From a virus (Duplodnaviria; Caudoviricetes), in the IMG/VR virus record IMGVR_UViG_3300031627_001041, positions 781 to 64,780 of that record: DNA of 64,000 nt; one strand, 5' to 3'. Numbering within the stretch: position 1 is the first letter of the stretch; each line of letters opens with the position of its first letter. Of the stretch, positions 3,425-34,972 are shown piece by piece. Below the pieces are notes generated by a model. That model was not told the origin of the DNA, made no database searches, and saw nothing but the letters and a program-made list of their open reading frames with translations. A program made the translations under genes and the position numbers.

Positions 3425-3497
3425 GTTCTTGTAGCTCAGTGGACAGAGCAAGCGGTTTCTACCCGCTAGGTCGGGAGTTCGACTCTCTCCAAGAATA
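3425..3497 (+). tRNA. tRNA-Arg(TCT), CCA not encoded
   Basis: Full cloverleaf: acceptor GTTCTTG/CAAGAAT, D arm GCTC/GAGC, anticodon arm AGCGG-TTTCTAC-CCGCT, T arm GGGAG-TTCGACT-CTCTC, discriminator A. Confidence 0.96.
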
Positions 3498-3504
3498 CTT
3501 ATAA

Positions 3505-3810
3505 GTACCCTACTAAGAAAGCAGTAAACGTGTCGAGGTTATTAGTAAGGCAAAGCAGGACGCGGGGGGCAGAACCCCGCTACCTCCACTTTAATTATAC
3601 GATTCTCAGAAGCTGTTGCGACACATGGGGGTAAAATAGAATCGACTGGTTGTACGAATTAATAATTGCACGTCGTAGTTGGGATCAAGGCTACGTTAAA
3701 ATGATTCCGAACAATAATTGCAACTCGTAATTACACAGTGGCTGCTTAATTGCGGTCGGGGGTTCTGTCAGTTCCTTCTTACCCAATACTGGCATTTTAT
3801 CTACTGAAAG
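3505..3810 (+). ncRNA. ssrA: Circularly permuted (two-piece) tmRNA: acceptor piece ~3505-3589, spacer, coding piece 3627-~3810; tag ATRNYTVAA* at 3720-3749
   Basis: The 3' acceptor strand TACCTCC-A-C (3581-3589) precedes the 5' strand GGGGGTA (3627-3633). They form a 7-bp stem with G3:U70. T arm GCGGGG-GGCAGAA-CCCCGC. P2 pairings 3659-3666/3538-3545 and 3669-3673/3528-3532. pk1 stems 3674-3680/3689-3695 and 3681-3687/3702-3708. Resume context AATAATT-GCA. Outer ends are approximate. Confidence 0.93.
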
Positions 3811-3816
3811 GTAAAA

Positions 3817-4242
3817 ATGGCAGATTCAGCAGACAATAATCATTGGTTTCTTGACAAGGAAGAATACAATAAAGACGACTTCACCGAGGAAGAGGCTGAA
3901 ACCCATTATAGACAATGGGGCTATTATAAAGTGCTTCACGAGGGTGACGGATACACAGTTAAAGAACTCACTATATTGCCCGGTAAATCATTATCAGACC
4001 AAAGACATTTTAAAAGAGCAGAGCATTGGTTTGTTCTCCAGGGTGAGCTTTGGGTTGATCTAGAATACGCCAAAACAAAAAAGTCGATCTACAGAAGTGC
4101 TGGTGCTCACAAAAATACCCTTTTTATTACTAAGAGGACATGGCATAGACCATACAACGCTGGAAATAAAGATACAATCATCATCGAAACTTGGGTCGGT
4201 GACTCAACAGAAGAAGATATTGAGCGGCGAAACATAATATAG
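3817..4242 (+). CDS. Cupin protein (mannose-6-phosphate isomerase type II C-terminal-like)
   Basis: RQWGYYKVL, VKELTILPGKSLSDQRHFKRAEHW and WHRPYN match the ManC/PMI-type cupin pattern. Confidence 0.85.
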   Translation: MADSADNNHWFLDKEEYNKDDFTEEEAETHYRQWGYYKVLHEGDGYTVKELTILPGKSLSDQRHFKRAEHWFVLQGELWVDLEYAKTKKSIYRSAGAHKNTLFITKRTWHRPYNAGNKDTIIIETWVGDSTEEDIERRNII

Positions 4243-4271: not shown

Positions 4272-5522
4272 ATGCTAGACATTAACTTTAATCGGAGAGA
4301 TTTTCTCAGAATCGGAGCGGGCTTTGGAGCTGGCTTTGGAGCGATTCCGTTTTCTGACGCCATAATGGCACAAGAGCAAATACTAATTCCGAATAATAGG
4401 TCTGTTGTATGGGTATGGCTTGGTGGAGGCCCGACACAGTTCGAGACCTTTCACGCCCCAACCCAGTCAGTCCCCGACCCCTACAAGCCTGTGTCTGGTA
4501 TTGTGACACATAAAAATGGCTTGGCGTTCGGAGGCTTGTTTAAAGACCTAATCAAACAGGGTGATAATCTGACTGCGGTCAACTCCTTTTCTCATGGGGA
4601 TTCGTCCCATCGACAGGCAACACACTGGATGATGACGGGACACCGTAACCCTAAAAGGGAGAACACTGCTGATTCAGAATATCCGGGCCACGGAGCTATT
4701 GCGTCTTCAGTATTTGGCTCTAACCACCCTTCAAATGGAATGCCCGCCTATGTAAAACAGGGAAAGATTGAAGGAGAACAACCAACCTTTTTGGGTGGAG
4801 CACACAAGCCCTTTGATCCGACCAATAAAGAAAATTTGACTCCCAGAGTGCCTACCAGCCGATTTTCAGAGAGAAAGGGTTTGCTTGACTCTTTAGACAG
4901 TCGCGGTAGAGTTTTCTCCCCAGACGCTGAATCATTCAGCAAGATAGGCAATACTGCCTATAATGTTATTCTTGGTAATGCGAAAGATGCATTCGATCTT
5001 GACCAAGAGCCGGAAGCGATGCGAGAAATGTATGGAAAGGGCGGCATTGGAGACCAAATGTTGCTTGCTCGTAGGCTGTCGCAGTTTGGAACTAAGTTTG
5101 TCACCGTTCATTATGGCGGCTGGGACATGCATGGCAATATCAAAAATGCATTAGAGGGTAAAGTTCCCCCTCTTGACAAAGCTCTCGCGGCTTTTGTTAA
5201 GGATATTTATCAAAGTGGAATGTCCGAAGATACCCTTCTTGTTGTTACCGGAGAGTTTGGAAGAACTAGGCTGAATGGTAACGGTGGCAGAGATCACTGG
5301 CCTTCCATCACTCCTATGCTATTATCTGGCGGGAAATACGATCACGGTCGAGTCATTGGGAAGGCTGACAAATCCTATGTGCCAACAGAAGATAAGGTTG
5401 GGCCAATTGATATTGCGGCAACACTGTTTGATCACTTTGAAATCGACAAGCAGATTCAAAGAACTGATCAAGGAGGAAGACCTAGATACCTACTCGAAGG
5501 AGAAGGAAAGTTGTTCTTATGA
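4272..5522 (+). CDS. DUF1501 family protein with Tat signal (paralogue 1)
   Basis: N-terminal RRDFLR twin-arginine motif, WLGGGPTQFETF, GWDMH, GEFGRT and GRDHWP. Confidence 0.88.
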   Translation: MLDINFNRRDFLRIGAGFGAGFGAIPFSDAIMAQEQILIPNNRSVVWVWLGGGPTQFETFHAPTQSVPDPYKPVSGIVTHKNGLAFGGLFKDLIKQGDNLTAVNSFSHGDSSHRQATHWMMTGHRNPKRENTADSEYPGHGAIASSVFGSNHPSNGMPAYVKQGKIEGEQPTFLGGAHKPFDPTNKENLTPRVPTSRFSERKGLLDSLDSRGRVFSPDAESFSKIGNTAYNVILGNAKDAFDLDQEPEAMREMYGKGGIGDQMLLARRLSQFGTKFVTVHYGGWDMHGNIKNALEGKVPPLDKALAAFVKDIYQSGMSEDTLLVVTGEFGRTRLNGNGGRDHWPSITPMLLSGGKYDHGRVIGKADKSYVPTEDKVGPIDIAATLFDHFEIDKQIQRTDQGGRPRYLLEGEGKLFL

Positions 5523-6775
5523 AAAGACGAAATTTTTTACACGCTGGTATCTTAGGCGGCTTTGGCCTATCTCTAGCTAGAGCCGATCAAAAATTCTACG
5601 ACAGCAAAGAGGGGCCAGCTAAGAGCGTTATTTTCATATATCTACCCGGAGGAATGGCCCATCAGGAAACCTTAGACCCTAAACCATTCGCCCCCATAGA
5701 ATATCGTGGACCTCTTGGTAGCATAAGTACCAATGTTCCCGGTATCCGTATTGGTGAGCTGTTAAAAAACACAGCAAAGATCACAGACAAAATTTCTATA
5801 ATTCGTAGCATGACACACGGTGAAGCAGCTCATGAACGTGGCACACACAATATGTTTACTGGCTACAAACCTAGTCCAGCCCTTCAATACCCATCTATGG
5901 GTTCAGTGGTTGCACATGAGTTTGGATCTCGCAAGAACCTTCCGCCCTACGTCTGTATACCAAATCCACCTAATGAATTTGCAGGCACTGGATATTTAAG
6001 TAGTTCATATTCTGGTTTTGGCTTAGGTTCCGATCCAGCAAGCGATGACTTTCAAGTTAGGGATTTGAGGGTTCCGGTTCCGGACGAAAGATTCAATAGA
6101 AGAAAAAGGGTTTTGGATATTGTTAACGCAGACTTTAACACAAAGCAAAACGCTGACTCTCTAGATGCTGTTAATTCCTTTTATAAAAAAGCATATAGCC
6201 TAATTGGTAGCGAACAGGCCCGTGATGCGTTCAACATGGAGAAAGAGTCTTCCGCTTTGAGGGATAAATACGGAAGAAACACTGCTGGTGCTCGAATGTT
6301 ACTAGCTCGCCGCTTAGTAGAGGCTGGCACTAGATTCGTAACCCTCACTTATGGTGGTTGGGATATGCACAACTCTATCGCTGGCGGAATGAAAAACCAA
6401 TTACCGGCATTTGATCAGGGGTTTTCTACACTAATTGAAGATTTGCATGATCGCGGATTATTGGACTCTACACTTGTGTGCGTAGTCTCCGAATTCGGAC
6501 GCACTCCAAAAATTAACGCAACCGCTGGGCGAGACCACTGGCCAAAGGTGTTTAGTACAATTATGGCTGGAGCAGGAATCAAACAAGGTATTACATACGG
6601 AACTTCAAACGCCACGGCTAGTGATCCAGAAGAAAACCCTGTTTCCATAGAAGATTGGGCAGCAACTATCTACAATAGGCTGGGAATCACGGCTGACAAG
6701 GAGCTAATGGCTCCCGGAGACCGCCCAATAGAAATCGTTGACGGCGGTAAAATTATACAAAACTTAATCATATAA
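5519..6775 (+). CDS. DUF1501 family protein with Tat signal (paralogue 2)
   Basis: RRNFLH, YLPGGMAHQETLDPKP, LARRLVEAG, GWDMH, EFGRTPKIN and GRDHWP. Confidence 0.92.
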   Translation: MKRRNFLHAGILGGFGLSLARADQKFYDSKEGPAKSVIFIYLPGGMAHQETLDPKPFAPIEYRGPLGSISTNVPGIRIGELLKNTAKITDKISIIRSMTHGEAAHERGTHNMFTGYKPSPALQYPSMGSVVAHEFGSRKNLPPYVCIPNPPNEFAGTGYLSSSYSGFGLGSDPASDDFQVRDLRVPVPDERFNRRKRVLDIVNADFNTKQNADSLDAVNSFYKKAYSLIGSEQARDAFNMEKESSALRDKYGRNTAGARMLLARRLVEAGTRFVTLTYGGWDMHNSIAGGMKNQLPAFDQGFSTLIEDLHDRGLLDSTLVCVVSEFGRTPKINATAGRDHWPKVFSTIMAGAGIKQGITYGTSNATASDPEENPVSIEDWAATIYNRLGITADKELMAPGDRPIEIVDGGKIIQNLII

Positions 6776-6803
6776 GAACAGAAGCTGCCGGAGAAAACCA
6801 AAG

Positions 6804-8021
6804 ATGAAGCATACAAGACGGAACTTTCTGTCGTCACTAGCTGGTGTCGTCTCTTTAACCAAAGCACTGAAGGCTAATGAAGACAAATTAAAAAAGAACG
6901 GCAAATCAGCTATCTTACTGTGGATGGGGGGTGGACCATCCACTATGGACATCTGGGATCTCAAACCAGATTCTAAAACCGGCGGCCCATTTAGACCAAT
7001 CTCCACATCTGGGGATGTTGAAATATGCGAACATATGCCATTGATGGCAAAGCAGATGCACAACATGGCTATCGTTCGCAGCATGAGTACTCGTGAAGCA
7101 GACCACATGCGAGGCAGATACTATATGCATACGGGCTATGTACCTAATCCAAATATAACCCATCCAAGCTACGGTGCAGTTCTCTCAAATCAGCTAGACA
7201 GAGAGCTTATGATACCCCAGTTTATATCTATAAACGGCGGAAGTATGGGGCCTGGATTTTTAGGTGCGGAGTATGCACCATTGGTTTTGAATAGTGACGG
7301 AAATATACGCAATTTAAAGATGAAAATAGACGAGAGGTTTTATCAAAGAGCAGCAATGCTAGACATGATTGAAACCAATTTCATAAACTCTAACAGAGGA
7401 TCAATGCCCAAAGAACACCAGAAGGTGTTGAGAAAGACATTTAACGTCCTAACTAGTACAGATATGGACGCCACAAAAGTAGCTAATGAACCTCAATCAG
7501 TACGTGATAGATATGGAGATAACAGCTTTGGTAAAGGATGTCTGATGGCTAGACGCCTTGTTGAGGTCGGTGTTCCATTTATTGAGGTTGGCTTAGGTGG
7601 GTGGGACAATCATCAAAATATTTTCCCCACATTAAAAGACACGAAACTCCCAGTATTAGATCGAGGAATGAGTGCTCTAATAGAAGACTTGGAGCAGCGA
7701 GGTCTTTTAAAAGATACTGTTATTATATGGATGGGGGAATTTAGCCGAACCCCACGGATTAATGCCAATGCTGGTCGTGATCACTGGGCAGCAAGCTGGA
7801 GTGTCGTGGTAGGAGGAGGAGGTATGAACGGAGGCATTTCTGTCGGGAGTACCAATGAAGACGGAAAGAGAGTAGAAGGCATGGCGTATTCGTCCCAAGA
7901 CATAATGGCTTCTGTTTGTAACGCTCTAAACATTTCCCTTAAAACTACTTTTACAAGTAATAGCGGGAGACCCATGAAAATTGCAAACTCAGGAAGAGTT
8001 ATAAAAGAGCTATTTACTTAA
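6804..8021 (+). CDS. DUF1501 family protein with Tat signal (paralogue 3)
   Basis: TRRNFLS, WMGGGPSTMDIWDLKP, MARRLVEVG, GWDNH, GEFSRTPRIN and GRDHWA. Confidence 0.92.
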   Translation: MKHTRRNFLSSLAGVVSLTKALKANEDKLKKNGKSAILLWMGGGPSTMDIWDLKPDSKTGGPFRPISTSGDVEICEHMPLMAKQMHNMAIVRSMSTREADHMRGRYYMHTGYVPNPNITHPSYGAVLSNQLDRELMIPQFISINGGSMGPGFLGAEYAPLVLNSDGNIRNLKMKIDERFYQRAAMLDMIETNFINSNRGSMPKEHQKVLRKTFNVLTSTDMDATKVANEPQSVRDRYGDNSFGKGCLMARRLVEVGVPFIEVGLGGWDNHQNIFPTLKDTKLPVLDRGMSALIEDLEQRGLLKDTVIIWMGEFSRTPRINANAGRDHWAASWSVVVGGGGMNGGISVGSTNEDGKRVEGMAYSSQDIMASVCNALNISLKTTFTSNSGRPMKIANSGRVIKELFT

Positions 8022-8055: not shown

Positions 8056-8991
8056 ATGAACACACTAATTCGTATCGTAACAGTAGCATTAGTAATGACC
8101 GTTGTCTCAATAACGTATGCAGAAGAAAAGGTTGCCCAACATTTGCAGGATGTTAGTGTGACCATTAAGTCGGCGTCATCAGAGGGGTCGGGAGTGCTTA
8201 TAACTAGAGAGATACAGAAATCTCCAAAAGACACTGAAAAAATTAATGTTAATTTTGTCGTAACGTGTGCTCATGTTGTAAATAACTTGCGGTCCACCAG
8301 AGATATTATTAATAGTAAGGGTCAGAAGCAAACGATTATAGAATTTCGTGATGCTCAAATCGTCAAAGAACTTGTTGAAAACGGTCGTAAGGTTGGCGAG
8401 CTTAAGATGGACGCCAAAGTAATTCTATATTCTGATGCCGAAGATGGCGAAGACCTTGCTGTGTTGATGGTGCGTAAATTAGGGTTCGTTGACACTAACA
8501 CTGAATTTGAGCTGTCCGAGAAACCAACGGCTATCGGGACTAACCTCTTTCATGTGGGGTCATTATTGGGCCAATCTGGAGCAAATTCGATGACCGCTGG
8601 AATAATGTCTCAGGTCGGTAGAGTTTTATCCTTGGGGACTGGTGATGGCGTCGTATTTGACCAAACGACTGTGACAGCATTTCCGGGTTCTTCTGGTGGA
8701 GGAGTGTTTCTTACTAACGGCAAATACGTGGGGATGCTGGTGCGTGGTGCTGGAGAAACCTTTAATTTGATTGTGCCAACTAGACGTATGAAAAAATGGA
8801 CTGCTAGTCGTAATGTAAAGTGGGTACTAGACCCAAAAGCTGTGACTCCCACTTTTGATGAGATTCAAAAGATTAAACCAGAGTCTGAGGGGGATGAGTC
8901 CGAAGCGGTTAAATCAGAAACACCAAAGGCATTTCCCTACTTGATACGTTCGGTCAAATCTGAAAATAAACTTCGGGCGAATGACCAGTGA
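8056..8991 (+). CDS. Secreted trypsin-like (S1/HtrA-type, no PDZ) serine protease
   Basis: Sec-type signal peptide and a catalytic triad: VTCAHVV, DLAVL, PGSSGGGVF. Confidence 0.9.
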   Translation: MNTLIRIVTVALVMTVVSITYAEEKVAQHLQDVSVTIKSASSEGSGVLITREIQKSPKDTEKINVNFVVTCAHVVNNLRSTRDIINSKGQKQTIIEFRDAQIVKELVENGRKVGELKMDAKVILYSDAEDGEDLAVLMVRKLGFVDTNTEFELSEKPTAIGTNLFHVGSLLGQSGANSMTAGIMSQVGRVLSLGTGDGVVFDQTTVTAFPGSSGGGVFLTNGKYVGMLVRGAGETFNLIVPTRRMKKWTASRNVKWVLDPKAVTPTFDEIQKIKPESEGDESEAVKSETPKAFPYLIRSVKSENKLRANDQ

Positions 8992-9752: not shown

Positions 9753-10369
9753 TCACTATTATTGGAGACGTTCATGGAAAACAGGCCAAACATCTAGATC
9801 TTATCGAGCATCATGACTTCACTCTCCAGATAGGAGACTTAGGATTTTGTTATAAGTACTTACAGGACACTAATTTAAATCATGTCTTTTTTAAAGGGAA
9901 TCATGATAACTATGACGTAGTTGACAAGCACGACATTGGTGAATTTGGCAACCGCGTTTTTAACCACGTTCCGTTTTTCTTTGTGCGTGGGGCGTTTAGT
10001 ATTGATTGGCCTTGGAGAGTTAGTAACGAACAAAAAGGGTTCGGTAAAAGCTGGTGGGGAGATGAGCAGCTTAGCCTTCTTCAAGCTGAAAAATGTCTAG
10101 AAGAGTATGTAGATACTAAGCCAGACCTTGTTATTACTCATTCGCTACCACGACAGTTGGCGGAAAGGGTTGGGAGTCCGGGAGCACTAAAGGCTTATGG
10201 ATACGATCCTGATACCTTTACGACAAATACGCAGGAATTGCTTCAAAGTATGTTTGAAGTACACCAGCCAGACATTTGGATCGCGGGGCATTTTCATAAA
10301 AGCTATAAAATCAAAGTAAGAAGTACCCATTTCATAGGCTTAGATGAGCTAGAAACTTATGAGTTGTAA
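9749..10369 (+). CDS. Calcineurin-like metallophosphoesterase
   Basis: Motifs GDVHG, GDLG, GNHDN, TH and GHFH. Confidence 0.92.
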   Translation: MITIIGDVHGKQAKHLDLIEHHDFTLQIGDLGFCYKYLQDTNLNHVFFKGNHDNYDVVDKHDIGEFGNRVFNHVPFFFVRGAFSIDWPWRVSNEQKGFGKSWWGDEQLSLLQAEKCLEEYVDTKPDLVITHSLPRQLAERVGSPGALKAYGYDPDTFTTNTQELLQSMFEVHQPDIWIAGHFHKSYKIKVRSTHFIGLDELETYEL

Positions 10370-11024
10370 AACAAATAGTGGTATTGCCTCTCGCAATATT
10401 CAACGAAAATTAGACAATATACAGAATAACCCCATTGATTTTTCTTTGTCTCCAGAAAACATGTATCTTTGGGGATTCTTATGGGCAGACGCTCACTTTT
10501 GTGAGTCTAGGAAGCGAGTAACGCTAGAAATTACAGAAGAAGATTTTTGTGAAATAGAACATGTGTTGCCCTTTTACTACAATAAATATTATAGGACACG
10601 AGAAAATAGAAAACCTCAAGCGTCAGCTGTCTCGACAAGAGAAGACCTATTTAAATTTTTCATGTCTAATGGATATGAATACAGAGATTGCCCTAGTGCT
10701 AAGATAACAAAATCTAAGAACAACCACTATTGGTTTAGGGGCTTAATAGATGGAGATGGATGCTGGTATATTGGGAAGTGTAAACAATTTACGATATCGT
10801 CTAGTCTATTTCAAGACTGGACGTTCTTCACCGATATGTTAGATAACATTGGGGTTAAAAAATATTCAGTAAAAAGACAACCAACTGAAAATATTGGTTA
10901 CTCCTATGTAAGGATATGCAATAAAAAAGGACTGCATAAACTGTATGATTTTTTGTATCCTAACGGATATGATTTTGGATTACAACGTAAATTTGATAAA
11001 GCCAACGAAATCAAATTATTATGA
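10359..11024 (+). mobile_element. Free-standing LAGLIDADG homing endonuclease
   Basis: Two LAGLIDADG-like helices, LWGFLWADAHF and FRGLIDGDGCW. It overlaps both neighbours. Confidence 0.85.
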
Positions 11025-21281: not shown

Positions 21282-22943
21282 ATGATTTCATTCATTAGCA
21301 CAGACTTTTCTCTCTCTTCATACTTCAAACCGGAGAATATGGAAAACCAGTGCATTCTGTGTGATGATAACTTGAGTGGGGCAGTAGACTACTTTCAGCA
21401 ATGCAAAAAGAAAAGTTTCAAGCCGATCATTAGTTATCGGGGAGACGAAATATACATTGCAAAGAATAAAGCAGACTATACAGAGATGCTTGACGCTTTC
21501 TCTTCTGAGCGTATTCCGAAGGTCACAACAATTGCTGGCGTACCATTTGGAACGCTCGCTAATTTAGTTACCGACAGTTACTACCCCTATACCCCTTCAG
21601 AAGACGCATGGGAACTCGGCAAAAGCTACCTCCGTCAACTAGAAGGGGATGTGATTGTTGGAATTACCCCCTATGATTCTGGTGCTGATGAGGGTCTCAG
21701 AGACCTTCTTAGAGACCTTGCGGAACACCTAGGTCTTCCCACCTGTGTGGTGGATGATGTCCATTACGCGTCAAACCTGGCTACCTCAGACGGTATTGAG
21801 TATGAGCCGCACAAAGATCATCAGATTTTGGTCTGTCACAGGACAAAAAAGACCATTGATGATCACGATCTAATGGATGATCGGTTCAAACGCTTCTTTA
21901 AGAGCAGCGAATACTACCCTCAAGACTGGTCAAAGCTGCCAGAATACAAGGGGACCGAAGAATTAGTTGCTTCTTGTGAAGAATACAGTATTCTAGACGA
22001 GCCACAACTCCCCTTCTTTAAGGACGCAACCAAAACCCTAACTAACCTGGCCCGAGAAGGCTGGAAGGAAAAAGGGCTATCTAAGATAGAAAACTGGAAA
22101 GTTTATCGTGATCGCATCAAAGAAGAGATTCGCGTTATTGATAAGTCTGGTTTTTCGGCCTACTTCTTAGTTCTAGAAGATGTATGTAGATGGATTGATG
22201 AACAAGGCTGGATGAGAGGTCATGGGCGAGGATCAGCGGGAGGCTGTTTAATCTCCTTCCTAATCGGAATTACTAAAGTTGACCCTATTGAGTACGACCT
22301 ACTGTTCGAGAGGTTCTTTTCAGAGGATCGTGCAGAGGCTAGACAGCTACCAGATATTGATATTGACGTGCCTAAGTTTAAGAGGCAGCAAATCTTTGCA
22401 TACCTCCAAGATACCTACGGACATGGTTCGGTAGCTCAAATGGTAACCTTTGCTGCTTTACAGGGACGCTCAGCTCTTACTTCTGCCTTAAAGTTTAATG
22501 ACTCATGTACCTTTTCTGAAATTAAAGCCATTACTGAATTTCTTCCTCAGAAGGATAAAGTCAGTGACCAAATGGATGCTGTTGGTGAGCATAGTCTAAT
22601 TCGTTGGACACTAGAATACCTGCCAGATATATTAGCTGACTTTGCCAGACTTGAAGACGGTAAGATTGTTGGTGACTATGCGAAAGAATTTGAGCAGGCT
22701 ATTAGACTCGAAAAGATTAAAATAGACAGGAGCAAACACGCCTCTGCCATTATCGTCTATAACGGCAATATCAGAGATGTTTGTCCTATGATTAAAGACA
22801 AATCTAGCGATGAGCTTATTACTCACTTCTCTATGGAACATGGTGAAGCTGCCGGGTTAGTCAAACTTGACCTGTTGGGCTTGGCTACTATGGACAAACT
22901 AATGCTAATCAACACGCTCTTAGAGGAGAAAGAAAATGAATAA
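21282..22943 (+). CDS. dnaE: DNA polymerase III alpha (DnaE), N-terminal half (PHP plus palm)
   Basis: PHP-like N-terminus, GRGSAGG, DPIEYDLLFERF, catalytic PDIDID, HAS and KLDLLGL. Confidence 0.92.
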   Translation: MISFISTDFSLSSYFKPENMENQCILCDDNLSGAVDYFQQCKKKSFKPIISYRGDEIYIAKNKADYTEMLDAFSSERIPKVTTIAGVPFGTLANLVTDSYYPYTPSEDAWELGKSYLRQLEGDVIVGITPYDSGADEGLRDLLRDLAEHLGLPTCVVDDVHYASNLATSDGIEYEPHKDHQILVCHRTKKTIDDHDLMDDRFKRFFKSSEYYPQDWSKLPEYKGTEELVASCEEYSILDEPQLPFFKDATKTLTNLAREGWKEKGLSKIENWKVYRDRIKEEIRVIDKSGFSAYFLVLEDVCRWIDEQGWMRGHGRGSAGGCLISFLIGITKVDPIEYDLLFERFFSEDRAEARQLPDIDIDVPKFKRQQIFAYLQDTYGHGSVAQMVTFAALQGRSALTSALKFNDSCTFSEIKAITEFLPQKDKVSDQMDAVGEHSLIRWTLEYLPDILADFARLEDGKIVGDYAKEFEQAIRLEKIKIDRSKHASAIIVYNGNIRDVCPMIKDKSSDELITHFSMEHGEAAGLVKLDLLGLATMDKLMLINTLLEEKENE

Positions 22944-23993: not shown

Positions 23994-24680
23994 ATGAAGC
24001 AGAACAACATTGCATTTATTGACTTTGAGACCACCGGACTATCAAAGAAGTGTCAGCTTACTCAAGTAGCTATTGTGGTCATGGACGGAAAAACACTAGA
24101 GTTTAGCAAGAACGATGTATTCAGCTCTAAAATTTGGATTGAGCAAGACGAAGATAGGTGTGCGGAGCTAGACATTGAACCGATTACCCAAAAGGTACTA
24201 GATCTTACCCACAACACACGAGAGGAGCTTTTAAAAGCACCAAAAGAAGATGTCGTTTGGGACAAGATGCTTCAGTTCCTAAAACGCTATTCTAACGCCG
24301 GACAGTGGGGTAGGCCAATTATGGCGGGCTACAACATTACAAACTATGACCGCCCACTCTTTGATATAAGAGCAGAGAAGTATGGTCAGTGGGACGACAA
24401 GCACAGATGCAATAAAGTGTTCCATCCAAGAGAGATTATCGACCTGCAGAAATTTATGTATCTGATTGTAGAGTCATTCCCAACGGTAAACTCAATGAGT
24501 ATGGACAACATGAGACAATTATTTGGGTTTCCAGACACTGGAATGTCTCATGATGCTCGCGTTGACGTTATTGAGGGTGCTTTATTACTTCAAAGACTAA
24601 TGCGTTGGTTACGGAAACTTAGCTCCAAGAAGAAGTTTGAGGGGGTAATGGCCTCCGCTAATGTGAAGGATTTTATGTGA
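23994..24680 (+). CDS. DEDDh 3'-5' exonuclease (DnaQ/epsilon-like)
   Basis: ExoI IDFETTGL, ExoII GYNITNYD and ExoIII HDARVD. Confidence 0.9.
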   Translation: MKQNNIAFIDFETTGLSKKCQLTQVAIVVMDGKTLEFSKNDVFSSKIWIEQDEDRCAELDIEPITQKVLDLTHNTREELLKAPKEDVVWDKMLQFLKRYSNAGQWGRPIMAGYNITNYDRPLFDIRAEKYGQWDDKHRCNKVFHPREIIDLQKFMYLIVESFPTVNSMSMDNMRQLFGFPDTGMSHDARVDVIEGALLLQRLMRWLRKLSSKKKFEGVMASANVKDFM

Positions 24681-26188
24681 TTGATTTTTATGACCTACCA
24701 AAAAATGACTATAAAACCTGGGAACTGTTGGCAACTGGCAAAACTGCCGGCATCTTCCAGCTAGACAATGAAAACCTTGGTGGTAGGTTCTCTCGAAAGA
24801 TTCAACCTAAGAGTATTGACGATATTGCTGCTGTAACCACCATTATTAGGCCGGGTACACTAAACGCAGAAATGGAAGACGGTGAATCAGCCGCCATTCA
24901 TTATGAAAGACGACATAGGGGCGTTGAGAAACCAGAAAGCTTTCATGAGCTACTTGATGTTATCCTGAAAGACACACAGCAGATTATTCTGTATCAGGAA
25001 CAAACGATTAAGATTGCCAAAGAGCTGGCGGGTTTTACTGGTGCTCAAGCCATGAAACTTATGAAGGGGATCGGTAAGAAGAAAGCCGACCTAATCATGG
25101 CACTAGAGAAAGACTTTGTCTCTGGCTGTGTAAAGAACGACATTGTTCAAGAAGAGGCACAGAAGATTTTTGACGTTATCAAGAAGTCGGCACGTTACTC
25201 ATTCAACAAGTCACACGCCGTAGCATACTCTGAGATTAGTTACTGTGACGCCTACGCAAAAGCAAACCACATGATAACCTTCTATGTGGCCTCGCTAAGA
25301 ATGGCACAACACAAAACCAAGTCTAAGATTGTAGTAAAGAAGCTGGTAAAAGAGGCGGCAGCCTTTGGTATTGTTTGTAAACCACCCCGACTTGATAATT
25401 GCTATGTTGATTTTACTGAGAGCCGTGGCGAGATTTACTTTGGCGTTTCTAATATTAAAGGGATAGGAGAAAAAAAGGCTCAGCAAATTGTGGACATAGC
25501 TCCAGGACCAGATACTTGGTATAAGTGTTTGTTTTGTCTACTAGGAGTGGGTAAGGCGGTTGCTGAGAACTCTATTCGGGCAGGAGTCTTTGCTAAGTAC
25601 AAAGTCCCAATTCGGAGACAGATTGATGACCTTAACAATCTATCGTTATTGTCGGTTGGCGAGAAGAAGTACGCAATAGAAACATATAATAATTTTGACA
25701 ATTTTGCCGACTTGCTTCGACATGTTAAGGTCACTAAGGCCACAAATAAACGAAAAGATAAACTGGACTCCATTATTAAACTAATGGATCACCCACCAGA
25801 AGAACTACAAGATAACCTACGGGATACCACCCAAAATGAAGTTGAATTGTTTGGCTGTACTATTAGTTATGATAATATTGATACGGTTCACGCAGCTGGA
25901 AATTGCAGTGTTAACGACTACAACGAGGGGAAAGATTTAAAGTTTTATCAGATAGTGGTTGAGGTGGAACGTGCTAAGACACACGAGATAACCAAAGGTA
26001 CTAGTAAAGGTAAGCTTATGTGTTTCCTGTCTGTATTTGACCATAGCGGTAAAATGGACGTTACTCTCTTTGATATAGCATACGACGAATTCGGTGGATT
26101 ACTATATGAGGGCAGCACAATTATGATTAAGGGCAAACGGGGCCGACGAAAGGGGCTTATTGTAGATGAGGTTCTACAGATAACATGA
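24677..26188 (+). CDS. dnaE: DNA polymerase III alpha (DnaE), C-terminal half (fingers, HhH, OB)
   Basis: TAGIFQL, IIRPG, ILYQEQ, FNKSHAVAY, HhH NIKGIGEK and OB fold MCFLSVFDHSG. Confidence 0.92.
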   Translation: MIDFYDLPKNDYKTWELLATGKTAGIFQLDNENLGGRFSRKIQPKSIDDIAAVTTIIRPGTLNAEMEDGESAAIHYERRHRGVEKPESFHELLDVILKDTQQIILYQEQTIKIAKELAGFTGAQAMKLMKGIGKKKADLIMALEKDFVSGCVKNDIVQEEAQKIFDVIKKSARYSFNKSHAVAYSEISYCDAYAKANHMITFYVASLRMAQHKTKSKIVVKKLVKEAAAFGIVCKPPRLDNCYVDFTESRGEIYFGVSNIKGIGEKKAQQIVDIAPGPDTWYKCLFCLLGVGKAVAENSIRAGVFAKYKVPIRRQIDDLNNLSLLSVGEKKYAIETYNNFDNFADLLRHVKVTKATNKRKDKLDSIIKLMDHPPEELQDNLRDTTQNEVELFGCTISYDNIDTVHAAGNCSVNDYNEGKDLKFYQIVVEVERAKTHEITKGTSKGKLMCFLSVFDHSGKMDVTLFDIAYDEFGGLLYEGSTIMIKGKRGRRKGLIVDEVLQIT

Positions 26189-26418
26189 TAAAACTATTAG
26201 CAACAGAAACAAACTATATTAAAGGATACGGTAGAATATCTGACTTACTTGGGAAGACCACATACGGTTTGTCTTTTGAAGAGTTTAATAGGTATGACAA
26301 AGTATGGGAGGAGTGGGAAGAAGATCTCTCACTACCGCATTATATATTACCCCCTAATTTTTTGACCCGTTCTATACCCAAAGGAACCATGAGAGTTTAC
26401 GGTGAAAACAATGCGTAA
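26185..26418 (+). CDS. Hypothetical protein
   Basis: Coupled ORF. Confidence 0.55.
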   Translation: MIKLLATETNYIKGYGRISDLLGKTTYGLSFEEFNRYDKVWEEWEEDLSLPHYILPPNFLTRSIPKGTMRVYGENNA

Positions 26419-27988
26419 AAGAGTCATGATAATCTCTGAATTCTCAGAGCTGTCAACTGGTTATTCGATATATGCCAAGAACCTAATAAGACAACTGTAC
26501 AATAGTAATAAGTACGAAATCGCAGAATTGGCGTGTTACGCAGAAGTGGGAGATCCAAGATTAAGCTCTCCTCCGTGGAAAGTATTTCCTACGGTTCCAC
26601 ACCCCGAAGACACACAGGGAAGGAAACAGTATCACTCTGATCCATTTAATGCCTTTGGGAAAGGCGTATGTAACGCTATTTTTAATGAGTGGCGACCAGA
26701 TTACGTTTTAACCTTCTTTGATGCATGGTACTCAGATCATCTAATTAATCTGCCTTCCTACTACAATACTGTAGAGAATGGGTTATTCAATCTGATCTGG
26801 ATGCCGACAGTAGATGCGGTTAATCAAAAACCCAGTTGGTTGGCATCATATAAAGAATGTGATGGGCTACTGTGTTACACAGACTGGAGCAGGGACATTC
26901 TACAAGAAGAGGGGTCTTTATTCACACACGGTGAGGCTCCAGCTTGTGGCTCAGAAGAGTTTGCTCCAGGACACAAGGGTAAGGCTAAGGAATCATTCGG
27001 TCTGAGTCCGGACACTAAAATTATTACAATGGTTTCGCGTAATCAAAGACGAAAACTGTTTCCTGACCTAATCAATACTTTTGCAGAATATCTGAAAGAA
27101 TCAGAGCGGGACGATACGCTGTTATGGCTACATACGTCTTATCCCGACAATCAAGGATGGGATATTGGTCGCTGTATTATGGACGGCGAAGTATGTAACA
27201 AGGTATTGATCACCTATTCCTGTGAGTGCGGGAACGTCTTTCCAAACCATTTCTGTGGGGCGACGGCGTTTTGCGGCAACTGTCATCGTTGGTCAGCACA
27301 AACCTCAAATGTAGGGGGTAAAATTTCTGACAGTGATATGGCCCGTATACTTAATGCCACAGACCTAGCTGTACTACACTCAAACTCTGAGGGCCAGGGG
27401 ATCTTTACCTGGCAAGCCGCCGCTTGTGGTGTTCCAATCTGTGAAGTAGACTATTCAGCTATGTCTTCTGCGGTTAATAAAATGGGTGGCTATAAAGTTC
27501 CGCCTATCTCATTAACAGAAGAGATCGAGACTGGGTGCAAAAGGGCTGTTCCAGATAACTCCGCACTTAAAGCCGTGTTTCATGATCACTTTAGTTTACC
27601 TAACAGCCTTCAGGTTCTCAAGGGGGCAGAAACACGCAACAAGTATATTGAGAACTACTCATGGGACAAAACAGCAAACGAATGGATGAAGATTATTGAT
27701 AGTTTACCGGTAAAGACCTGGAATAGGGACGCAAGAATGGATACCTCAGAAGCCTTCAGTCCTCATCCACACCTTTCAAATACTCAGTATGCAAGATGGC
27801 TAATTAAAAAAGTAGCTTGTCAGCCCGAGAGACTAAACACATTCTTTGAACTTCAACTCATTGAAGAACTAACGAACGGCGTTATGGACAATACTAAACT
27901 GACACGAAAACCAAGAGAGTTCTTTTATGAGAGATATTCTTGGTTTAGGAACCGTCTAAACGAACTGGAGCATATACGATGCAATTAA
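26411..27988 (+). CDS. Glycosyltransferase, GT-B/GT4-like, with Cys-rich insertion
   Basis: STGYS, VSRNQRRKLFP, SNSEGQG and AAACGVP. Confidence 0.85.
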   Translation: MRKRVMIISEFSELSTGYSIYAKNLIRQLYNSNKYEIAELACYAEVGDPRLSSPPWKVFPTVPHPEDTQGRKQYHSDPFNAFGKGVCNAIFNEWRPDYVLTFFDAWYSDHLINLPSYYNTVENGLFNLIWMPTVDAVNQKPSWLASYKECDGLLCYTDWSRDILQEEGSLFTHGEAPACGSEEFAPGHKGKAKESFGLSPDTKIITMVSRNQRRKLFPDLINTFAEYLKESERDDTLLWLHTSYPDNQGWDIGRCIMDGEVCNKVLITYSCECGNVFPNHFCGATAFCGNCHRWSAQTSNVGGKISDSDMARILNATDLAVLHSNSEGQGIFTWQAAACGVPICEVDYSAMSSAVNKMGGYKVPPISLTEEIETGCKRAVPDNSALKAVFHDHFSLPNSLQVLKGAETRNKYIENYSWDKTANEWMKIIDSLPVKTWNRDARMDTSEAFSPHPHLSNTQYARWLIKKVACQPERLNTFFELQLIEELTNGVMDNTKLTRKPREFFYERYSWFRNRLNELEHIRCN

Positions 27989-28227
27989 AAATTGAACAAG
28001 ATGTTTTTGATAGACTAATGAAATTCGCCAAAGAAGTTCAGAAGCCCTATCGTAAATTAGCTATGGAAGCTATGAGAATTGGTGTAGAGGTGCTATGGCA
28101 CAAATACTACGCAGACGCTCGTGTGGTTGTCCTACACAAGAAAAAGGACAAAGAGGTGGAATTTTGTGAAATCGAAACAGAAAGCAAGGAGAAATTTGAT
28201 GCAGGCATTAGTAAAGCGGAAGAATAA
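27979..28227 (+). CDS. Ribbon-helix-helix-like small DNA-binding protein
   Basis: MQLKIEQDVFDRLMKFAKEVQKPYRKLAMEAM shows an RHH/CopG beta-strand plus two-helix pattern. Confidence 0.55.
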   Translation: MQLKIEQDVFDRLMKFAKEVQKPYRKLAMEAMRIGVEVLWHKYYADARVVVLHKKKDKEVEFCEIETESKEKFDAGISKAEE

Positions 28228-28408
28228 GAAGGACTGGGTTTTCAAATGGGATGGTAAGGCTTACTCTATGGTGACCCACTATGGGAACACCTATCGGTTA
28301 GCACTAAGTGACAACCTAAAGGTTGAGATCCAAAAAGATACGGGTTGGGAAAACAACTCAACAATTAACGATACAGTGCGACCAACGCAAGTAATTTTTA
28401 GTCTTTGA
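28199..28408 (+). CDS. Hypothetical protein
   Basis: Coupled ORF with likely start ATG 28199. Confidence 0.5.
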   Translation: MQALVKRKNKKDWVFKWDGKAYSMVTHYGNTYRLALSDNLKVEIQKDTGWENNSTINDTVRPTQVIFSL

Positions 28409-28415
28409 GGAAAAA

Positions 28416-29507
28416 ATGAAGATACTTCTCTTAAGTAGTTATGAAGAGGGGAACTCAGCCTGGTCCAGAGCAGCACAGAATATGTGTAGAGCTTTGGACG
28501 TGGCTGGGGCCAACGTTGTGCCCCGCAGTTATAAACTTAACCAGTCACAACCAAATGTCCACGAGAGGGTGAGGGAATTAGAGGCTGGCAGCGAAGAAGG
28601 GTGTGACACGATACTTCATATCGGATTACCCCATCACTATAGCTGGGACGATAGATTCTTCAATGTCGGCTACTTCTTTACAGAAAGCCAAAACTTCTCA
28701 GGCTCTAGTTGGGTGAGTCACTGCAACCTAATGGATCTTGTATTGGTTCCCAATAAATATGCGGCGGTTGCCGCTGCTGATAGCGGCATTACGGTTCCGA
28801 TCAAAGTATGTCCCGTTCCACTAGATACAGAACTATACAAGGAATATGAGCCACTAGAGCAGATTAAGGATGCCACCTTTGGTGACTACTTGTTCTACTT
28901 TATTGGTGACTTTGGTTTACGAAAGGCACTGCCCACAGTCTTAAAAGCGTTCTACACAGAGTTCTCAAAAAATGAGCCTGTGAACTTAGTCATTAAGACA
29001 AACAAGTACGGTGTGTCTCAAGCAGAAGTCGAAGCTATGACCCTAAAAATGGTTAATGAAATCAAACAGGGTCTACGAGTTAGTGCCGAGTACAGCGATC
29101 CTGTTATCATTACAGACGAGCTATCACAAGAAGACCTATTCAGACTACATTCGACATGTAACTGTTTAGTTAGCCCTAGCTACGGCGAGGCGTGGGGCTT
29201 TAATGTTCTGGACGCTATGGGGCTGAAAAACTCGGTTATCACCTCAGATACCGGCGGCTTCAAAGATTATTCGCCCCAAAAAATTAAGTCATACCCAAGT
29301 CAAGCCTTTAATATTGAGTCCTTTCCTGGACTAATGACAGGTCATGAAACTTGGGAGTGCGTTGATCAAACCGACCTAATGAAAACGATGCGTCAATGCT
29401 TTAACTGGGAAGGCAGTATTTCAACCAATAAGCAAATTGCCTGTGGGTACAGCTTAGAGAAGGTCGGAAAACAACTACTAACAATTTTGGAAAGAGAAAC
29501 ACCATGA
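28416..29507 (+). CDS. Glycosyltransferase GT4-like
   Basis: FIGDFGLRKAL, LVSPSYGEAWG and DAMGL. Confidence 0.88.
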   Translation: MKILLLSSYEEGNSAWSRAAQNMCRALDVAGANVVPRSYKLNQSQPNVHERVRELEAGSEEGCDTILHIGLPHHYSWDDRFFNVGYFFTESQNFSGSSWVSHCNLMDLVLVPNKYAAVAAADSGITVPIKVCPVPLDTELYKEYEPLEQIKDATFGDYLFYFIGDFGLRKALPTVLKAFYTEFSKNEPVNLVIKTNKYGVSQAEVEAMTLKMVNEIKQGLRVSAEYSDPVIITDELSQEDLFRLHSTCNCLVSPSYGEAWGFNVLDAMGLKNSVITSDTGGFKDYSPQKIKSYPSQAFNIESFPGLMTGHETWECVDQTDLMKTMRQCFNWEGSISTNKQIACGYSLEKVGKQLLTILERETP

Positions 29508-30478
29508 AAATCACCCACTCTACTATCAACAGAGTAGACCCAAACAGAACTATTAGGGTGCTGGGTGCATTTGCTCATGAGCGTTTTGATGCCAACTTGG
29601 CTAAGATTCCAAATTTTGAGTTTTATTGTCTACCTATTGAACATTCCAGAAAATGGGACAAAAGAAAAGCACCTTTCCCCGATAATTATTTTCTATGTGA
29701 TCGAAATGTCTTATCTTATAGAGACTTTGACTATGTGATTTGCGAGAATCCGCTCGCCCTCTATCCAGAACTTAAGGCTATATCACTAGAGTATAATCTT
29801 CCCATCATCAATATTTGGCATACTAATTCGCCCCCAAGCTGGGATAAGAACAGCTGGGACGCCCAGCCCTTTATTAACGACACTAATGTATTTATCACAA
29901 AGTACAACGAACTGATCTGGACGGGACAATCTGGAAACCATAAGGTAATTGATCACTGTATTGATACTGAACTATTTGCTACGGCTGAGATGTTAGGTAA
30001 AAAGCAAGAAAATACTATCTTTAATATGGTGAATGATTTTAGTAATAGGAGTAGGGAACACGGGTTAGAACTATTTAAACACCTGACACAAGGACTGCCA
30101 GTCAAGCTTTTAGGGGATAGTCCGGGAATCTCTAAGCCTGCAGAAAACCTAGATCACTTAGTAGAAGAAATTGCCACAAGCTCTATCTTCTTATCAAGCA
30201 GTCTCTCTAGTCCCTTGAGTATGAGTATTCTAGAGGCCGCGAGTTGCGGATTAGCTCTAGTATTGACCTCATGCTCTGGAAACCCAGATTACTTTGATGA
30301 TTCAAATGCGTTTTTCTTTTCTCCAAATCGTCCGCAAGACGGAAGAGAGCACTTAGTTAACCTGCTGCAAGACAAAGACCTACGGGATGAATACGGACAA
30401 AAAGCCCGAGAACGAGTTGAGCAGCTTACAACAGAAAGATTTGTTGACAAATGGGAACAGATATTGAGAAGACGCTAA
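29504..30478 (+). CDS. Glycosyltransferase GT4-like
   Basis: HCIDTELF, SPLSMSILEAASCG and GQKARE. Confidence 0.85.
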   Translation: MKITHSTINRVDPNRTIRVLGAFAHERFDANLAKIPNFEFYCLPIEHSRKWDKRKAPFPDNYFLCDRNVLSYRDFDYVICENPLALYPELKAISLEYNLPIINIWHTNSPPSWDKNSWDAQPFINDTNVFITKYNELIWTGQSGNHKVIDHCIDTELFATAEMLGKKQENTIFNMVNDFSNRSREHGLELFKHLTQGLPVKLLGDSPGISKPAENLDHLVEEIATSSIFLSSSLSSPLSMSILEAASCGLALVLTSCSGNPDYFDDSNAFFFSPNRPQDGREHLVNLLQDKDLRDEYGQKARERVEQLTTERFVDKWEQILRRR

Positions 30479-34853: not shown

Positions 34854-34871
34854 CCATTTTTTCTAATCGCA

Positions 34872-34920
34872 CGGATTTTTCGGTATAAAAAATCGTTTCG
34901 ACGATATACTATTATGAGGG
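34872..34920 (+). promoter_or_regulatory. Putative phage promoter motif, copy B
   Basis: Gapless match to 2398-2446. Contains TATACT and lies in the largest intergenic gap of the glyco cluster. Confidence 0.65.
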
Positions 34921-34972
34921 TCCGTGTTCATCAAGCAACATCACCCCTAGAAAGCAAAAATAATCACACAAT

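Follow-up and report, generated by a model that had tools for sequence, protein, structure and literature searches.

A Marine Phage Cassette of DUF1501 Genes with Separate Host Origins and Predicted Docking on Planctomycete PSCyt2/PSD1 Partners

A Cassette of Three DUF1501 Genes

Three consecutive ORFs in the window (the whole 64,000-nucleotide stretch of DNA that was analyzed) encode full-length DUF1501 proteins, herein types A, B, and C (P0001, P0002, and P0003; Table 1); the type A stop and type B start overlap by 4 nt. Against a Pfam gathering score of 27 bits for PF07394, all three are clear members of the family; the matches cover positions 2 through 380 (P0001), 1 through 390 (P0002), and 2 through 390 (P0003) of the 390-position model and were reproduced on the whole record. 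No family was found for the three proteins in PHROGs or NCBIfam. GGWDxH, EF(G/S)RT, and GRDHW are common to all three, none contains a C/SxPxR sulfatase motif, and P0001 has no cysteine. ORFs, Pfam scores, and motif scan agree with the original prediction, made from the letters alone, of three intact genes with RRxFL signals and conserved motifs but no CxPxR motif; the divergence (31 to 33% pairwise identity) and the base composition near that of the rest of the phage (GC 44.7% for the cassette, 42.3% for the window) were likewise seen correctly.

Table 1. Cassette genes, putative signal peptides, and flanking genes (window positions)
Feature	Position	Strand	Remarks
Cupin, like C-terminal domain of mannose-6-phosphate isomerase	3817..4242	+	Upstream; PF01050 E = 1e-19
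Type A DUF1501 (P0001)	4272..5522	+	416 aa; PF07394 217.7 bits
Putative Tat signal, type A	4272..4370	+	Residues ~1-33, end ...AIMAQ; approximate boundary
Type B DUF1501 (P0002)	5519..6775	+	418 aa; PF07394 372.6 bits
Putative Tat signal, type B	5519..5584	+	Residues ~1-22, end ...LARA; approximate boundary
Type C DUF1501 (P0003)	6804..8021	+	405 aa; PF07394 332.4 bits
Putative Tat signal, type C	6804..6875	+	Residues ~1-24, end ...ALKA; approximate boundary
Trypsin-like serine protease	8056..8991	+	Downstream; Trypsin_2 E = 2.5e-13

Each protein begins with a candidate twin-arginine motif followed by a moderately hydrophobic stretch: NRRDFLR at residues 7 through 13 of P0001 (RRDFL at residue 8; maximum 12-residue hydropathy 1.50), KRRNFL in P0002 (RRNFL at residue 3; 1.66), and TRRNFL in P0003 (RRNFL at residue 5; 1.74). 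Among viral copies the RRx[FL..] motif occurs in 78/78 of type A, and the RR motif in 23/24 of type B, 27/27 of type C, and 144/145 overall; the AlphaFold2 (AF2) model of type B has low pLDDT across residues 1 through 20. Pfam and NCBIfam searches with the cassette proteins returned no Tat-signal family; export by Tat is predicted from the motifs. TatC is absent from the phage record and present in two Planctomycetota genomes that hold C and D orthologues.

The Cassette Is Part of the Phage and Widespread in Seawater

The window belongs to a real tailed phage, encoding a 3412-aa tape measure, DnaB, primase, UvsX, an exonuclease, and a split DnaE-type polymerase. A tblastn search of GenBank phages (50,697 records) with P0002 and with a 1033-aa structural ORF returned no match, and the only match of the DnaE half among these records is at 28%, so that the phage has no known relative in culture. 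Genes near the cassette include phoH and the replication module.

DUF1501 is typical of planctomycetes and is absent from both PHROGs and the GenBank phage records, as would be expected had bacterial DNA been mis-assembled onto the phage contig or had a contaminating fragment been included. We give this practically no credence: dozens of independent IMG/VR contigs, drawn from many samples, place the same cassette next to the same replication module, its GC matches that of the phage and not that of bacteria, contigs from independent runs extend from the cassette into its phage flanks (X2, for instance, covers 3444 through 15564 in pieces), and the viral sequences form clades of their own in the tree.

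A search of IMG/VR for phage DUF1501 arrays, which the original prediction had proposed, found 477 stretches encoding a relative, and in hundreds of contigs such genes number one to four. In a homologue search, the 120 best matches were all of viral type, with at least 74% identity and no useful names; their protein clusters likewise yielded no names. Loci with full flanks hold A alone, A+D, A+C, A+B, B+C, A+B+C, or A+B+D+C (type D is present in relatives only), the order A-B-(D)-C recurs, and three near-complete relatives (145 to 174 kb, CheckV 94 to 100%) carry two to four DUF1501 genes. Of 80 related loci, only 2 have a cupin homologue adjoining the cassette, so the cupin is not a fixed component. 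The stretch is present in seawater metagenomes from at least 12 studies. Contigs from three metatranscriptome libraries, derived from related variants, cover 3.9 to 8.0 kb, although they may stem from carried-over DNA; RNA-library contigs span 3.6 to 8.0 kb without the flanks, a coverage uninformative on relative expression because this stretch itself served to find the runs and the flanks of relatives diverge quickly.

Each Gene Type Has Its Own Host Origin

As judged from the phylogeny, the cassette genes are separate orthologue types (A, B, and C, with D added in relatives) and not in-phage duplicates. An AU test rejects monophyly of the viral sequences (p = 7.1e-71, log-likelihood difference 934), so that the "diverged paralogues" first described, if read as copies of one phage gene, give way to orthologues of different planctomycete genes; of the two outcomes initially envisaged, a phage-monophyletic group or three captures, the tree favors separate captures. 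All viral type A sequences fall in one clade (support 100), whose sister is a Planctomycetota clade at 38 to 44% identity; the identity of type A to Planctomycetota proteins does not exceed 44%. The viral type B clade nests within a Planctomycetota branch near Pirellulaceae and Planctomycetaceae, with 52 to 67% identity to one orthologue per genome in Planctomycetota and Verrucomicrobiota; the best cellular match (67%) is a protein of a Pirellulaceae metagenome-assembled genome (MAG). Type C is 61% identical to a Stieleria bergensis protein (G001:5101510-5102703) and 52 to 55% identical to proteins of six other Planctomycetota genomes, and no match at E ≤ 1e-100 was found in 151 Verrucomicrobiota genomes. 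Type D is 61 to 62% identical to proteins of S. bergensis and genome G006. In S. bergensis the relatives of A, C, and D lie at about 1.45, 5.10, and 1.58 Mb, respectively. Nested among cellular homologues in the tree, with phage genes on either side and with intact frames that related phages conserve, the cassette genes are host-derived auxiliary genes of the phage.

Strong Purifying Selection and a Derived Type A

The viral DUF1501 genes are under strong purifying selection (dN/dS 0.03 to 0.05; type A 0.044) and change far more slowly than replication proteins: compared with relatives, B and C show a dN of about 0.1 and the replication genes one of 0.6 to 0.9, a comparison in which dS is saturated in all genes, so that the captures cannot be dated and recent exchange cannot be separated from constraint. 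The reading frames are intact, and the dN/dS of about 0.04, together with GC shifted to the phage level and saturated synonymous sites between relatives, supports the long retention that had been supposed.

Invariant columns of the family were derived from 81 sequences and are given, as are near-invariant ones, in P0002 numbering. Invariant residues, which include G44, H105, R265, D282, H284, R328, R338, and H340, are all retained in the 145 viral copies of types A through D. Only type A lacks the near-invariant D53, K55, and R96, which are replaced by H, P/T, and N/D in 78/78 viral copies and kept as D, K, and R in 15/15 cellular sister sequences. Judged by these residues, type A is a phage-specific derived form with a remodelled pocket, and it may act on a changed substrate.

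Host Modules and the Missing Partner

DUF1501 genes occur in modules with PSCyt1, PSCyt2, and PSD1 in Planctomycetota, Verrucomicrobiota, and Lentisphaerae (PMC3542564; PMC5615132, He et al. 2017). Few gene families of Planctomycetota are as expanded as DUF1501 and its PSCyt/PSD partners; three genomes checked contain 64, 110, and 21 DUF1501 copies, in line with the large expansion stated in the original prediction. The cellular B module comprises four genes in PVC bacteria, encoding DUF1501, a PPC-domain protein, a Big_2-PSCyt2-PSD1 protein, and a PSCyt1 protein, and agrees with the "most complex cluster" of Kamneva et al. 2012 (PMC3542564). Cellular C and D orthologues both adjoin PSCyt2-PSD1 genes, C lying directly 3' of one that encodes 575 aa, and the PSCyt2/PSD1 (DUF1549/DUF1553) partner genes of B, C, and D orthologues carry c-type haem-binding motifs. 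No PSCyt2/PSD1 gene was found beside the one cellular relative of type A examined, where a WD40 protein adjoins instead.

The phage proteins share family, twin-arginine motif, and invariant residues with the DUF1501 proteins of these PVC modules; B is the orthologue of the DUF1501 of the four-gene module (up to 67% identity), and C and D are orthologues of DUF1501 proteins in two-gene or three-gene modules. The phage differs in holding the DUF1501 component only, without PSCyt, PSD, or PPC partners, in gathering several unrelated module subunits into one cassette, and in the loss of three near-invariant residues from type A. The lack of a DUF1549/DUF1553 partner, first remarked for the window, extends to the phage's own record, where PSCyt2 and PSD1 gave no match at E ≤ 1; in five long relatives, three of them 94 to 100% complete, PSD1 gave none at E ≤ 0.1.

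A complex model of phage B with the PSCyt2/PSD1 partner from a Pirellulaceae MAG (L131) reached an ipSAE of 0.87, compared with 0.01 for the best of three controls; at least 94% of contacts are common to the runs, and the partner has a pLDDT of at least 90. Of 80 solved complexes, 58 attained this ipSAE mark, as did 2 of 110 mismatched pairs; these counts apply only roughly, because the model was built with alignments made for this analysis. P0002 matched nothing in a sequence search of the PDB; as there is no relative of solved structure by sequence, the complex score does not reflect memorized structures. Residues of the predicted interface are less conserved than the remainder (52% against 63% identity to cellular orthologues) and so add no extra support for docking. 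The model suggests that phage DUF1501 proteins probably dock onto the host's own partners, although it is a prediction and the MAG that supplied the partner may not be the host.

The module data also bear on the proposal that A, B, and C assemble into one hetero-oligomeric enzyme, as the original prediction had considered possible. Adjacent genes on one strand, the A/B overlap, and the recurring gene order would suit such an assembly, but the gene set varies from one to four copies among relatives, each type traces back to its own host gene, and these genes occupy separate chromosomal sites (A, C, and D in S. bergensis), and the host orthologues of B, C, and D each have a PSCyt2/PSD1 partner gene of their own. 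We therefore judge it very improbable.

Fold and Candidate Active Site

The AF2 model of type B (pLDDT 91.8) predicts a fold of the alkaline-phosphatase superfamily, nearest to NPP and PafA. VIA-align gave Z scores of 15 to 20 to NPPs, PafA, sulfatases, LtaS, EptA, and phosphopentomutase, in support of the relation to the alkaline-phosphatase/sulfatase superfamily that had been noted at the outset; the best were ENPP6 (Z 19.9, rmsd 3.0 Å over 244 residues), PafA (19.8), and Xac NPP (19.6). Sulfatases, at 17 to 18, trail the phosphoesterases by only 2 to 3 Z units, too small a gap for the fold to decide the chemistry. In a Foldseek search of the PDB, sulfatases and alkaline phosphatase were matched at probability 1.00, with low TM-scores (about 0.4); VIA-align was the more informative for comparing folds. 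Identity to superfamily members is only 10 to 17%, a profile search of the PDB yielded nothing beyond marginal matches to sulfatases and LtaS near GEFGRT, and one cellular B orthologue matched Pfam Phosphodiest weakly.

GGWDxH, GRDHW, and E325 are located where the superfamily keeps metal ligands, and E325 was aligned by profile with the Asp of the sulfatase GDHG motif. The DUF1501 proteins differ from type I sulfatases in having no CxPxR formylglycine motif, and from the superfamily in having a helical cap, some 50 residues long, that forms the predicted partner interface and, apparently, Gly-Gly (G44-G45, after the first strand) for the first-strand Asp and an invariant His at the Ser/Thr/formylglycine place. 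This residue, H105, begins the predicted helix after strand 93 through 99; from the secondary structure and from the NPP motif, this is probably the place of the nucleophile. Invariant D282/H284, E325, and D339/H340, together with H105, are candidate metal ligands. No biochemical function was found in the literature for any DUF1501 protein, nor was a functional study of DUF1549, DUF1553, or PSCyt2.

Such a fold would allow the cassette proteins to act alone, as periplasmic phospho- or sulfoesterases that free phosphate or sulfate from organic esters for phage replication in the manner of the phoA/pstS-type auxiliary genes of marine phages. The best structural matches are phosphodiesterases and phosphatases, the Phosphodiest match and the nearby phoH and replication module point the same way, and some cellular DUF1501 genes have no PSCyt neighbor (Kamneva et al. 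2012, PMC3542564). None was seen for the cellular type A relative either. Nevertheless, this is unlikely, given that the usual nucleophile is not evident and appears to be replaced by His, that Gly-Gly appears to take the place of the first-strand metal Asp, that sulfatases score so close to phosphoesterases, that B, C, and D derive from host genes tightly linked to partners, and that the complex model strongly favors docking.

Proposed Subunit Supply to Host Modules

We consider it rather probable that the cassette supplies separately captured auxiliary DUF1501 subunits that are exported by Tat and dock on host PSCyt2/PSD1 partners. Each gene derives from an old, separate capture of a different host DUF1501 gene, the phage taking this component only and leaving the haem-motif PSCyt2/PSD1 partners behind. 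In the infected cell, the proteins would first fold in the cytoplasm, probably around a metal center, and would then be exported folded by the host Tat system; in the periplasm, the helical cap (residues about 181 through 229) would dock onto the PSD1 end of the host-encoded partners and keep up or boost the host modules while host gene expression fails. The reaction suggested by the fold is hydrolysis or transfer of a phosphate or sulfate ester. Of the undescribed phage system put forward in the original prediction, the real genes and the real phage stand; in light of the complex model, the proteins are better read as catalytic subunits from host modules than as a system complete in itself.

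In cyanophages, the auxiliary genes psbA and psbD each stand in for a single subunit of a host complex. Like them, the DUF1501 genes are host-derived, encode one component of a multi-protein host machine whose rest would be host-supplied, are under strong purifying selection, and are kept by many marine phages; unlike them, they would serve a predicted periplasmic machine and supply up to four subunits from different modules. That many marine phages keep one to four DUF1501 genes, better conserved than replication proteins, indicates that the DUF1501 component is important to infection.

A trypsin-like protease, a sulfotransferase-like ORF, and a metallophosphoesterase lie 3' of the cassette on the same strand, and the window encodes several glycosyltransferases. 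With these neighbors the cassette could instead remodel the host envelope, for example to block superinfection or prepare lysis, and protease homologues (56 to 87% identity) adjoin type A in 9 of 80 related loci. The three 3' neighbors are missing from most related loci, however, which argues against a fixed system, and the host orthologues lie in conserved housekeeping-like modules rather than envelope-modification loci; we hold envelope remodelling to be improbable.

For the subunit-supply reading, the most likely host is a planctomycete of Pirellulales or Planctomycetales kind. Against this stand the phage GC (42%, compared with 51 to 62% at the nearest planctomycete loci) and a permuted tmRNA of alphaproteobacterial type in the window; a search of four Planctomycetota genomes found no permuted tmRNA. 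The result suggests planctomycetes as hosts of a large, uncultured lineage of phages with genomes of 140 to 175 kb, singles out four specific host modules for study, and offers a concrete testable pair of phage enzyme and host partner. More tentatively, at somewhat short of even chances, this marine planctomycete phage lineage practices periplasmic subunit replacement, with up to four DUF1501 types on PSCyt2/PSD1 and with type A (D53H, K55P/T, R96N) bringing a new specificity that no cell encodes. If so, the phages would be a minimal handle for working out what one of the largest orphan gene families of Planctomycetota does.

No paper describing phage DUF1501 genes was found in the literature searched, nor any discussing UniProt A0A6J5M742, the only phage protein of DUF1501 fold in BFVD (Foldseek E = 1.3e-10). 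This protein ([quoted passage not shown], an automatic annotation) has 489 aa and is 16% identical; databases thus already label at least one phage DUF1501.

Three Tandem DUF1501 Genes in an Uncultured Phage

The cassette encodes three members of DUF1501, P0001, P0002, and P0003 (orthologue types A, B, and C), each covering nearly all of the 390 positions of Pfam model PF07394 and scoring above its 27-bit cut-off; the scores were repeated on the whole record. At the N terminus of each protein, RRDFL or RRNFL precedes a segment of moderate hydrophobicity, and all three share GGWDxH, EF(G/S)RT, and GRDHW. None contains the C/SxPxR sulfatase motif, and they are not type I sulfatases. P0001 has no cysteines. 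The A and B genes overlap by 4 nt, and AGGAG lies 8 nt upstream of the type A start. Pairwise identity among the proteins is 31 to 33%, and the GC content of the cassette (44.7%) is close to that of the phage (42.3%), against 51 to 62% in the nearest bacterial loci. The original prediction had described full-length genes with RRxFL and conserved motifs, no CxPxR, and phage-like base composition, and had proposed a Pfam check. As the ORFs, PF07394 matches, divergence, and motifs were all found, that observation is correct; its interpretation is supported in part.

The virus record in IMG/VR comprises 64,780 bases and is ~42% complete by CheckV. Its products include a DnaB-type helicase, primase, UvsX-like recombinase, exonuclease, DNA methyltransferase, PhoH, and a fragment of RNR; the DnaE-type polymerase is encoded by two ORFs with ~1.7 kb of intervening genes. 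The tape measure protein is, to our knowledge, among the longest, and its length implies a putative tail that would be very long. ORFs of 841, 486, 1033, and 801 aa downstream of it matched no family. Among GenBank phages, no relative was found of P0002 or of the 1033-aa structural ORF, and the polymerase is only 28% identical to those of cultured phages; the window is phage, of an uncultured lineage. Seawater metagenomes from at least 12 studies contain the exact stretch.

Table. Positions of the features discussed and the matches that define them
Feature	Position	Strand	Details
tRNA-Arg(TCT) and, directly after, permuted two-piece tmRNA, alphaproteobacterial type	3425-3498 and 3528-3749	+	Rfam RF04321, 79.5 bits; RF01849, 53.9 bits
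P0001 (type A), 416 aa	4272-5522	+	PF07394, 217.7 bits
P0002 (type B), 418 aa	5519-6775	+	PF07394, 372.6 bits
P0003 (type C), 405 aa	6804-8021	+	PF07394, 332.4 bits
LAGLIDADG-domain ORF	10359-11024
DnaE-type polymerase, split into two ORFs	21282-22943 and 24677-26188	+	The two ORFs match in turn phrog_405 positions 213-617 and 623-1078
Glycosyltransferase-like gene	26402-27988	+
Glycosyltransferase-like gene	28416-29507	+
Glycosyltransferase-like gene	29504-30478	+
Glycosyltransferase-like gene	33771-34853	+
C-methyltransferase	36436-37647	+	Methyltransf_14, E = 7e-44
Tape measure protein, single ORF, 3412 aa	52128-62366	-	Tape measure PHROGs matched by the first 450 residues, E = 7e-27

Distribution and Constraint among Phages

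The proposed search of IMG/VR for phage DUF1501 arrays returned 477 stretches encoding a relative. Four orthologue types were defined from the best 80 loci of these: A (55 to 99% identical to P0001), B (72 to 100% identical to P0002), C (49 to 98% identical to P0003), and D, which is not in the window (33 to 35% identical to P0002). In these 80 loci the DUF1501 genes occupy a single strand, mostly in the order A-B-D-C, next to a PhoH-UvsX-DnaB-primase module. Loci with full flanks hold A alone, A+D, A+C, A+B+C, or A+B+D+C. With B as bait, the counts were 12 for ABC, 5 for ABCD, 3 for AB, 2 for BC, and 1 for B alone; B was accompanied by another, more distantly related DUF1501 gene in 3 loci, and 11 more held only such distant genes. 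Complete relatives (145 to 174 kb) carry two to four copies each. One 103-kb viral contig (IMGVR_UViG_3300025264_002028; loci L041 and L046) has two type A copies separated by ~23 kb. Their identities to P0001 are 59% and 58%; a trypsin-like gene adjoins one copy and a type D gene the other. Single DUF1501 genes only 33 to 39% identical to types A through D occur at IMG/VR loci L238-L256 and L259. Additional DUF1501 family members were apparently captured by other phage lineages.

Of 145 full-length viral copies, 144 carry the RR motif; all family-invariant residues are retained, and dN/dS inside each type is 0.03 to 0.05. In relatives where DnaB, UvsX, primase, and PhoH are only 25 to 47% identical, B and C are still 71 to 86% identical; dN is ~0.1 for B and C and 0.6 to 0.9 for the replication genes, with synonymous sites saturated in all genes. 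The DUF1501 genes are long-standing and functional in these phages, and their predicted long retention is borne out by the low dN/dS, the saturated synonymous sites, and the phage-like GC content.

Type A differs at three positions (P0002 numbering, used for DUF1501 throughout): the near-invariant D53, K55, and R96 are H, P/T, and N/D in 78 of 78 viral copies, whereas D, K, and R are retained in 15 of 15 cellular sister proteins and in >96% of 124 family representatives. Its branch is long (0.76), yet its dN/dS of 0.044 indicates strong purifying selection. From these sequences, type A looks to have changed function within the phage lineage.

Separate Captures from Planctomycetota

The nearest cellular relatives all belong to the PVC group. 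Planctomycetota and Verrucomicrobiota carry one type B orthologue per genome, at 52 to 67% identity, and the closest is from a Pirellulaceae metagenome-assembled genome. The type C match in Stieleria bergensis is 61% identical and those in six other Planctomycetota genomes are 52 to 55% identical; 151 Verrucomicrobiota genomes gave no match at E ≤ 1e-100. Type D is 61 to 62% identical to proteins of Stieleria and another genome (G006); type A reaches only 38 to 44%, to a Planctomycetota group. In the trees, viral A, B, and D each form one clade (support 99 to 100), and viral C splits into two clades that share a polytomy with the Stieleria orthologue. Types B, C, and D are each nested within a distinct Planctomycetota group, and A lies next to yet another. 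The B tree tracks species relationships, with Verrucomicrobiota branching outside Planctomycetota.

Constraining all the viral rows to a single group lowers the log-likelihood by 934 units (AU p = 7.1e-71). Because a single viral clade is rejected, the three genes are separate captures, and duplication within the phage is rejected likewise. This is the outcome of the suggested phylogeny against host paralogues; of the earlier description as diverged paralogues, the divergence stands, but the genes are not paralogues of one phage gene.

Fold and Putative Active Site

The AF2 model of P0002 is confident, with a pLDDT of 91.8; no solved structure of a relative was found by sequence. By VIA-align the model belongs to the alkaline-phosphatase superfamily, with ENPP6 (Z 19.9; rmsd 3.0 Å, 244 residues aligned), PafA (19.8), ENPP7 (19.7), and Xac NPP (19.6) ahead of sulfatases (17 to 18). 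Foldseek finds the same superfamily with weaker agreement, and the relation to alkaline phosphatases and sulfatases stated earlier is upheld. A profile search aligned DUF1501 "GEFGRT" with sulfatase "GDHGR", so that E325 stands in place of the metal-binding Asp of sulfatases. In the model, invariant H105 begins the helix after strand 93 through 99, and Gly-Gly lies right after the first strand. The superfamily usually has a Ser, Thr, or formylglycine nucleophile at that helix start and a metal-binding Asp at the first strand. Based partly on the NPP motif, we infer that DUF1501 would have His at the nucleophile site and Gly-Gly at the metal-Asp site.

A Predicted Host Partner Absent from the Phage

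The cellular B orthologue is followed by genes for a PPC-domain protein (~810 aa), a Big_2-PSCyt2(DUF1549)-PSD1(DUF1553) protein (~830 aa, with an N-terminal PSCyt1 domain too in some genomes), and a PSCyt1 protein (~300 aa), the "most complex" module of Kamneva et al. 2012 (PMC3542564). The Stieleria orthologue of C comes immediately after a PSCyt2-PSD1 gene of 575 aa, and that of D lies beside a Big_2-PSCyt2-PSD1 gene of 817 aa; the neighbor of the Stieleria type A relative is a WD40 protein. CxxCH-type motifs are conserved in the partner family. Across the PVC group, the type B module's PSCyt partner shares 52 to 68% identity (alignment A3; numbering of L131:9784-12330, a Pirellulaceae locus). 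C171-x4-C176-H177 and C521-x2-C524-H525 are invariant in it, and its C-terminal FWxxLNSREFxFNH, within the predicted interface, is nearly so. DUF1501 copies number 64, 110, and 21 in the three cellular genomes examined.

Neither PSCyt2 nor PSD1 was found in the phage record, in line with the absence first noted in the window, and no PSD1 was found in five long relatives (three of them 94 to 100% complete). Because the partner is absent, the cassette is not a DUF1501-PSCyt module as a gene arrangement. TatC, present in two planctomycete genomes, was likewise not found in the record.

Mature phage B was modeled with residues 350 through 848 of the Pirellulaceae partner. The complex had an ipSAE of 0.87 (0.87 to 0.88 in three runs), and the highest-scoring of three controls had 0.01. 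The ipSAE mark of the complex is attained by 58 of the 80 solved complexes and by 2 of the 110 mismatched pairs, rough counts, own alignments having been used in the model. Contacts agreed between runs to at least 94%, and partner pLDDT was at least 90. The modeled interface sets the DUF1501 helical cap (residues ~181 through 229) against the conserved C-terminal PSD1 region (677 through 848); its residues are not unusually conserved. The model supports predicted binding of phage B to the host PSCyt2/PSD1 partner.

The cassette is a set of host-derived phage auxiliary genes, and the nearest concept is an auxiliary gene supplying one subunit of a host complex. No mention of phage DUF1501 genes was found in the literature searched, and BFVD holds one phage protein so named, automatically; the cassette is of real interest for planctomycete and marine-phage biology.

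Transcription, Host, and Neighboring Genes

Contigs of three metatranscriptome libraries from three studies cover the cupin-A-B-C stretch at 90 to 99% identity, consistent with cassette transcription, although the runs were selected with that stretch itself and the contigs may reflect DNA carry-over. RNA-library contigs also cover 3637-3733, within the tmRNA. A planctomycete is the putative host, as the best reading of the four gene trees. The permuted tmRNA disagrees with that host, as none was found in four Planctomycetota genomes searched. Phage GC, 10 to 20 points under that of the nearest planctomycete loci, also casts doubt on it.

The run of glycosyltransferase-like genes and the C-methyltransferase (26402-37647) suggest that the phage may build or modify a sugar. 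In a contig of sequencing run X2, 10086 is joined to 11219, with 478 other letters replacing 1132; the LAGLIDADG-domain ORF falls within the replaced part and is therefore a variable insert, probably a mobile one. At ~42 kb, GC skew and coding strand switch sign where the plus-strand replication and auxiliary block meets the minus-strand tail block.
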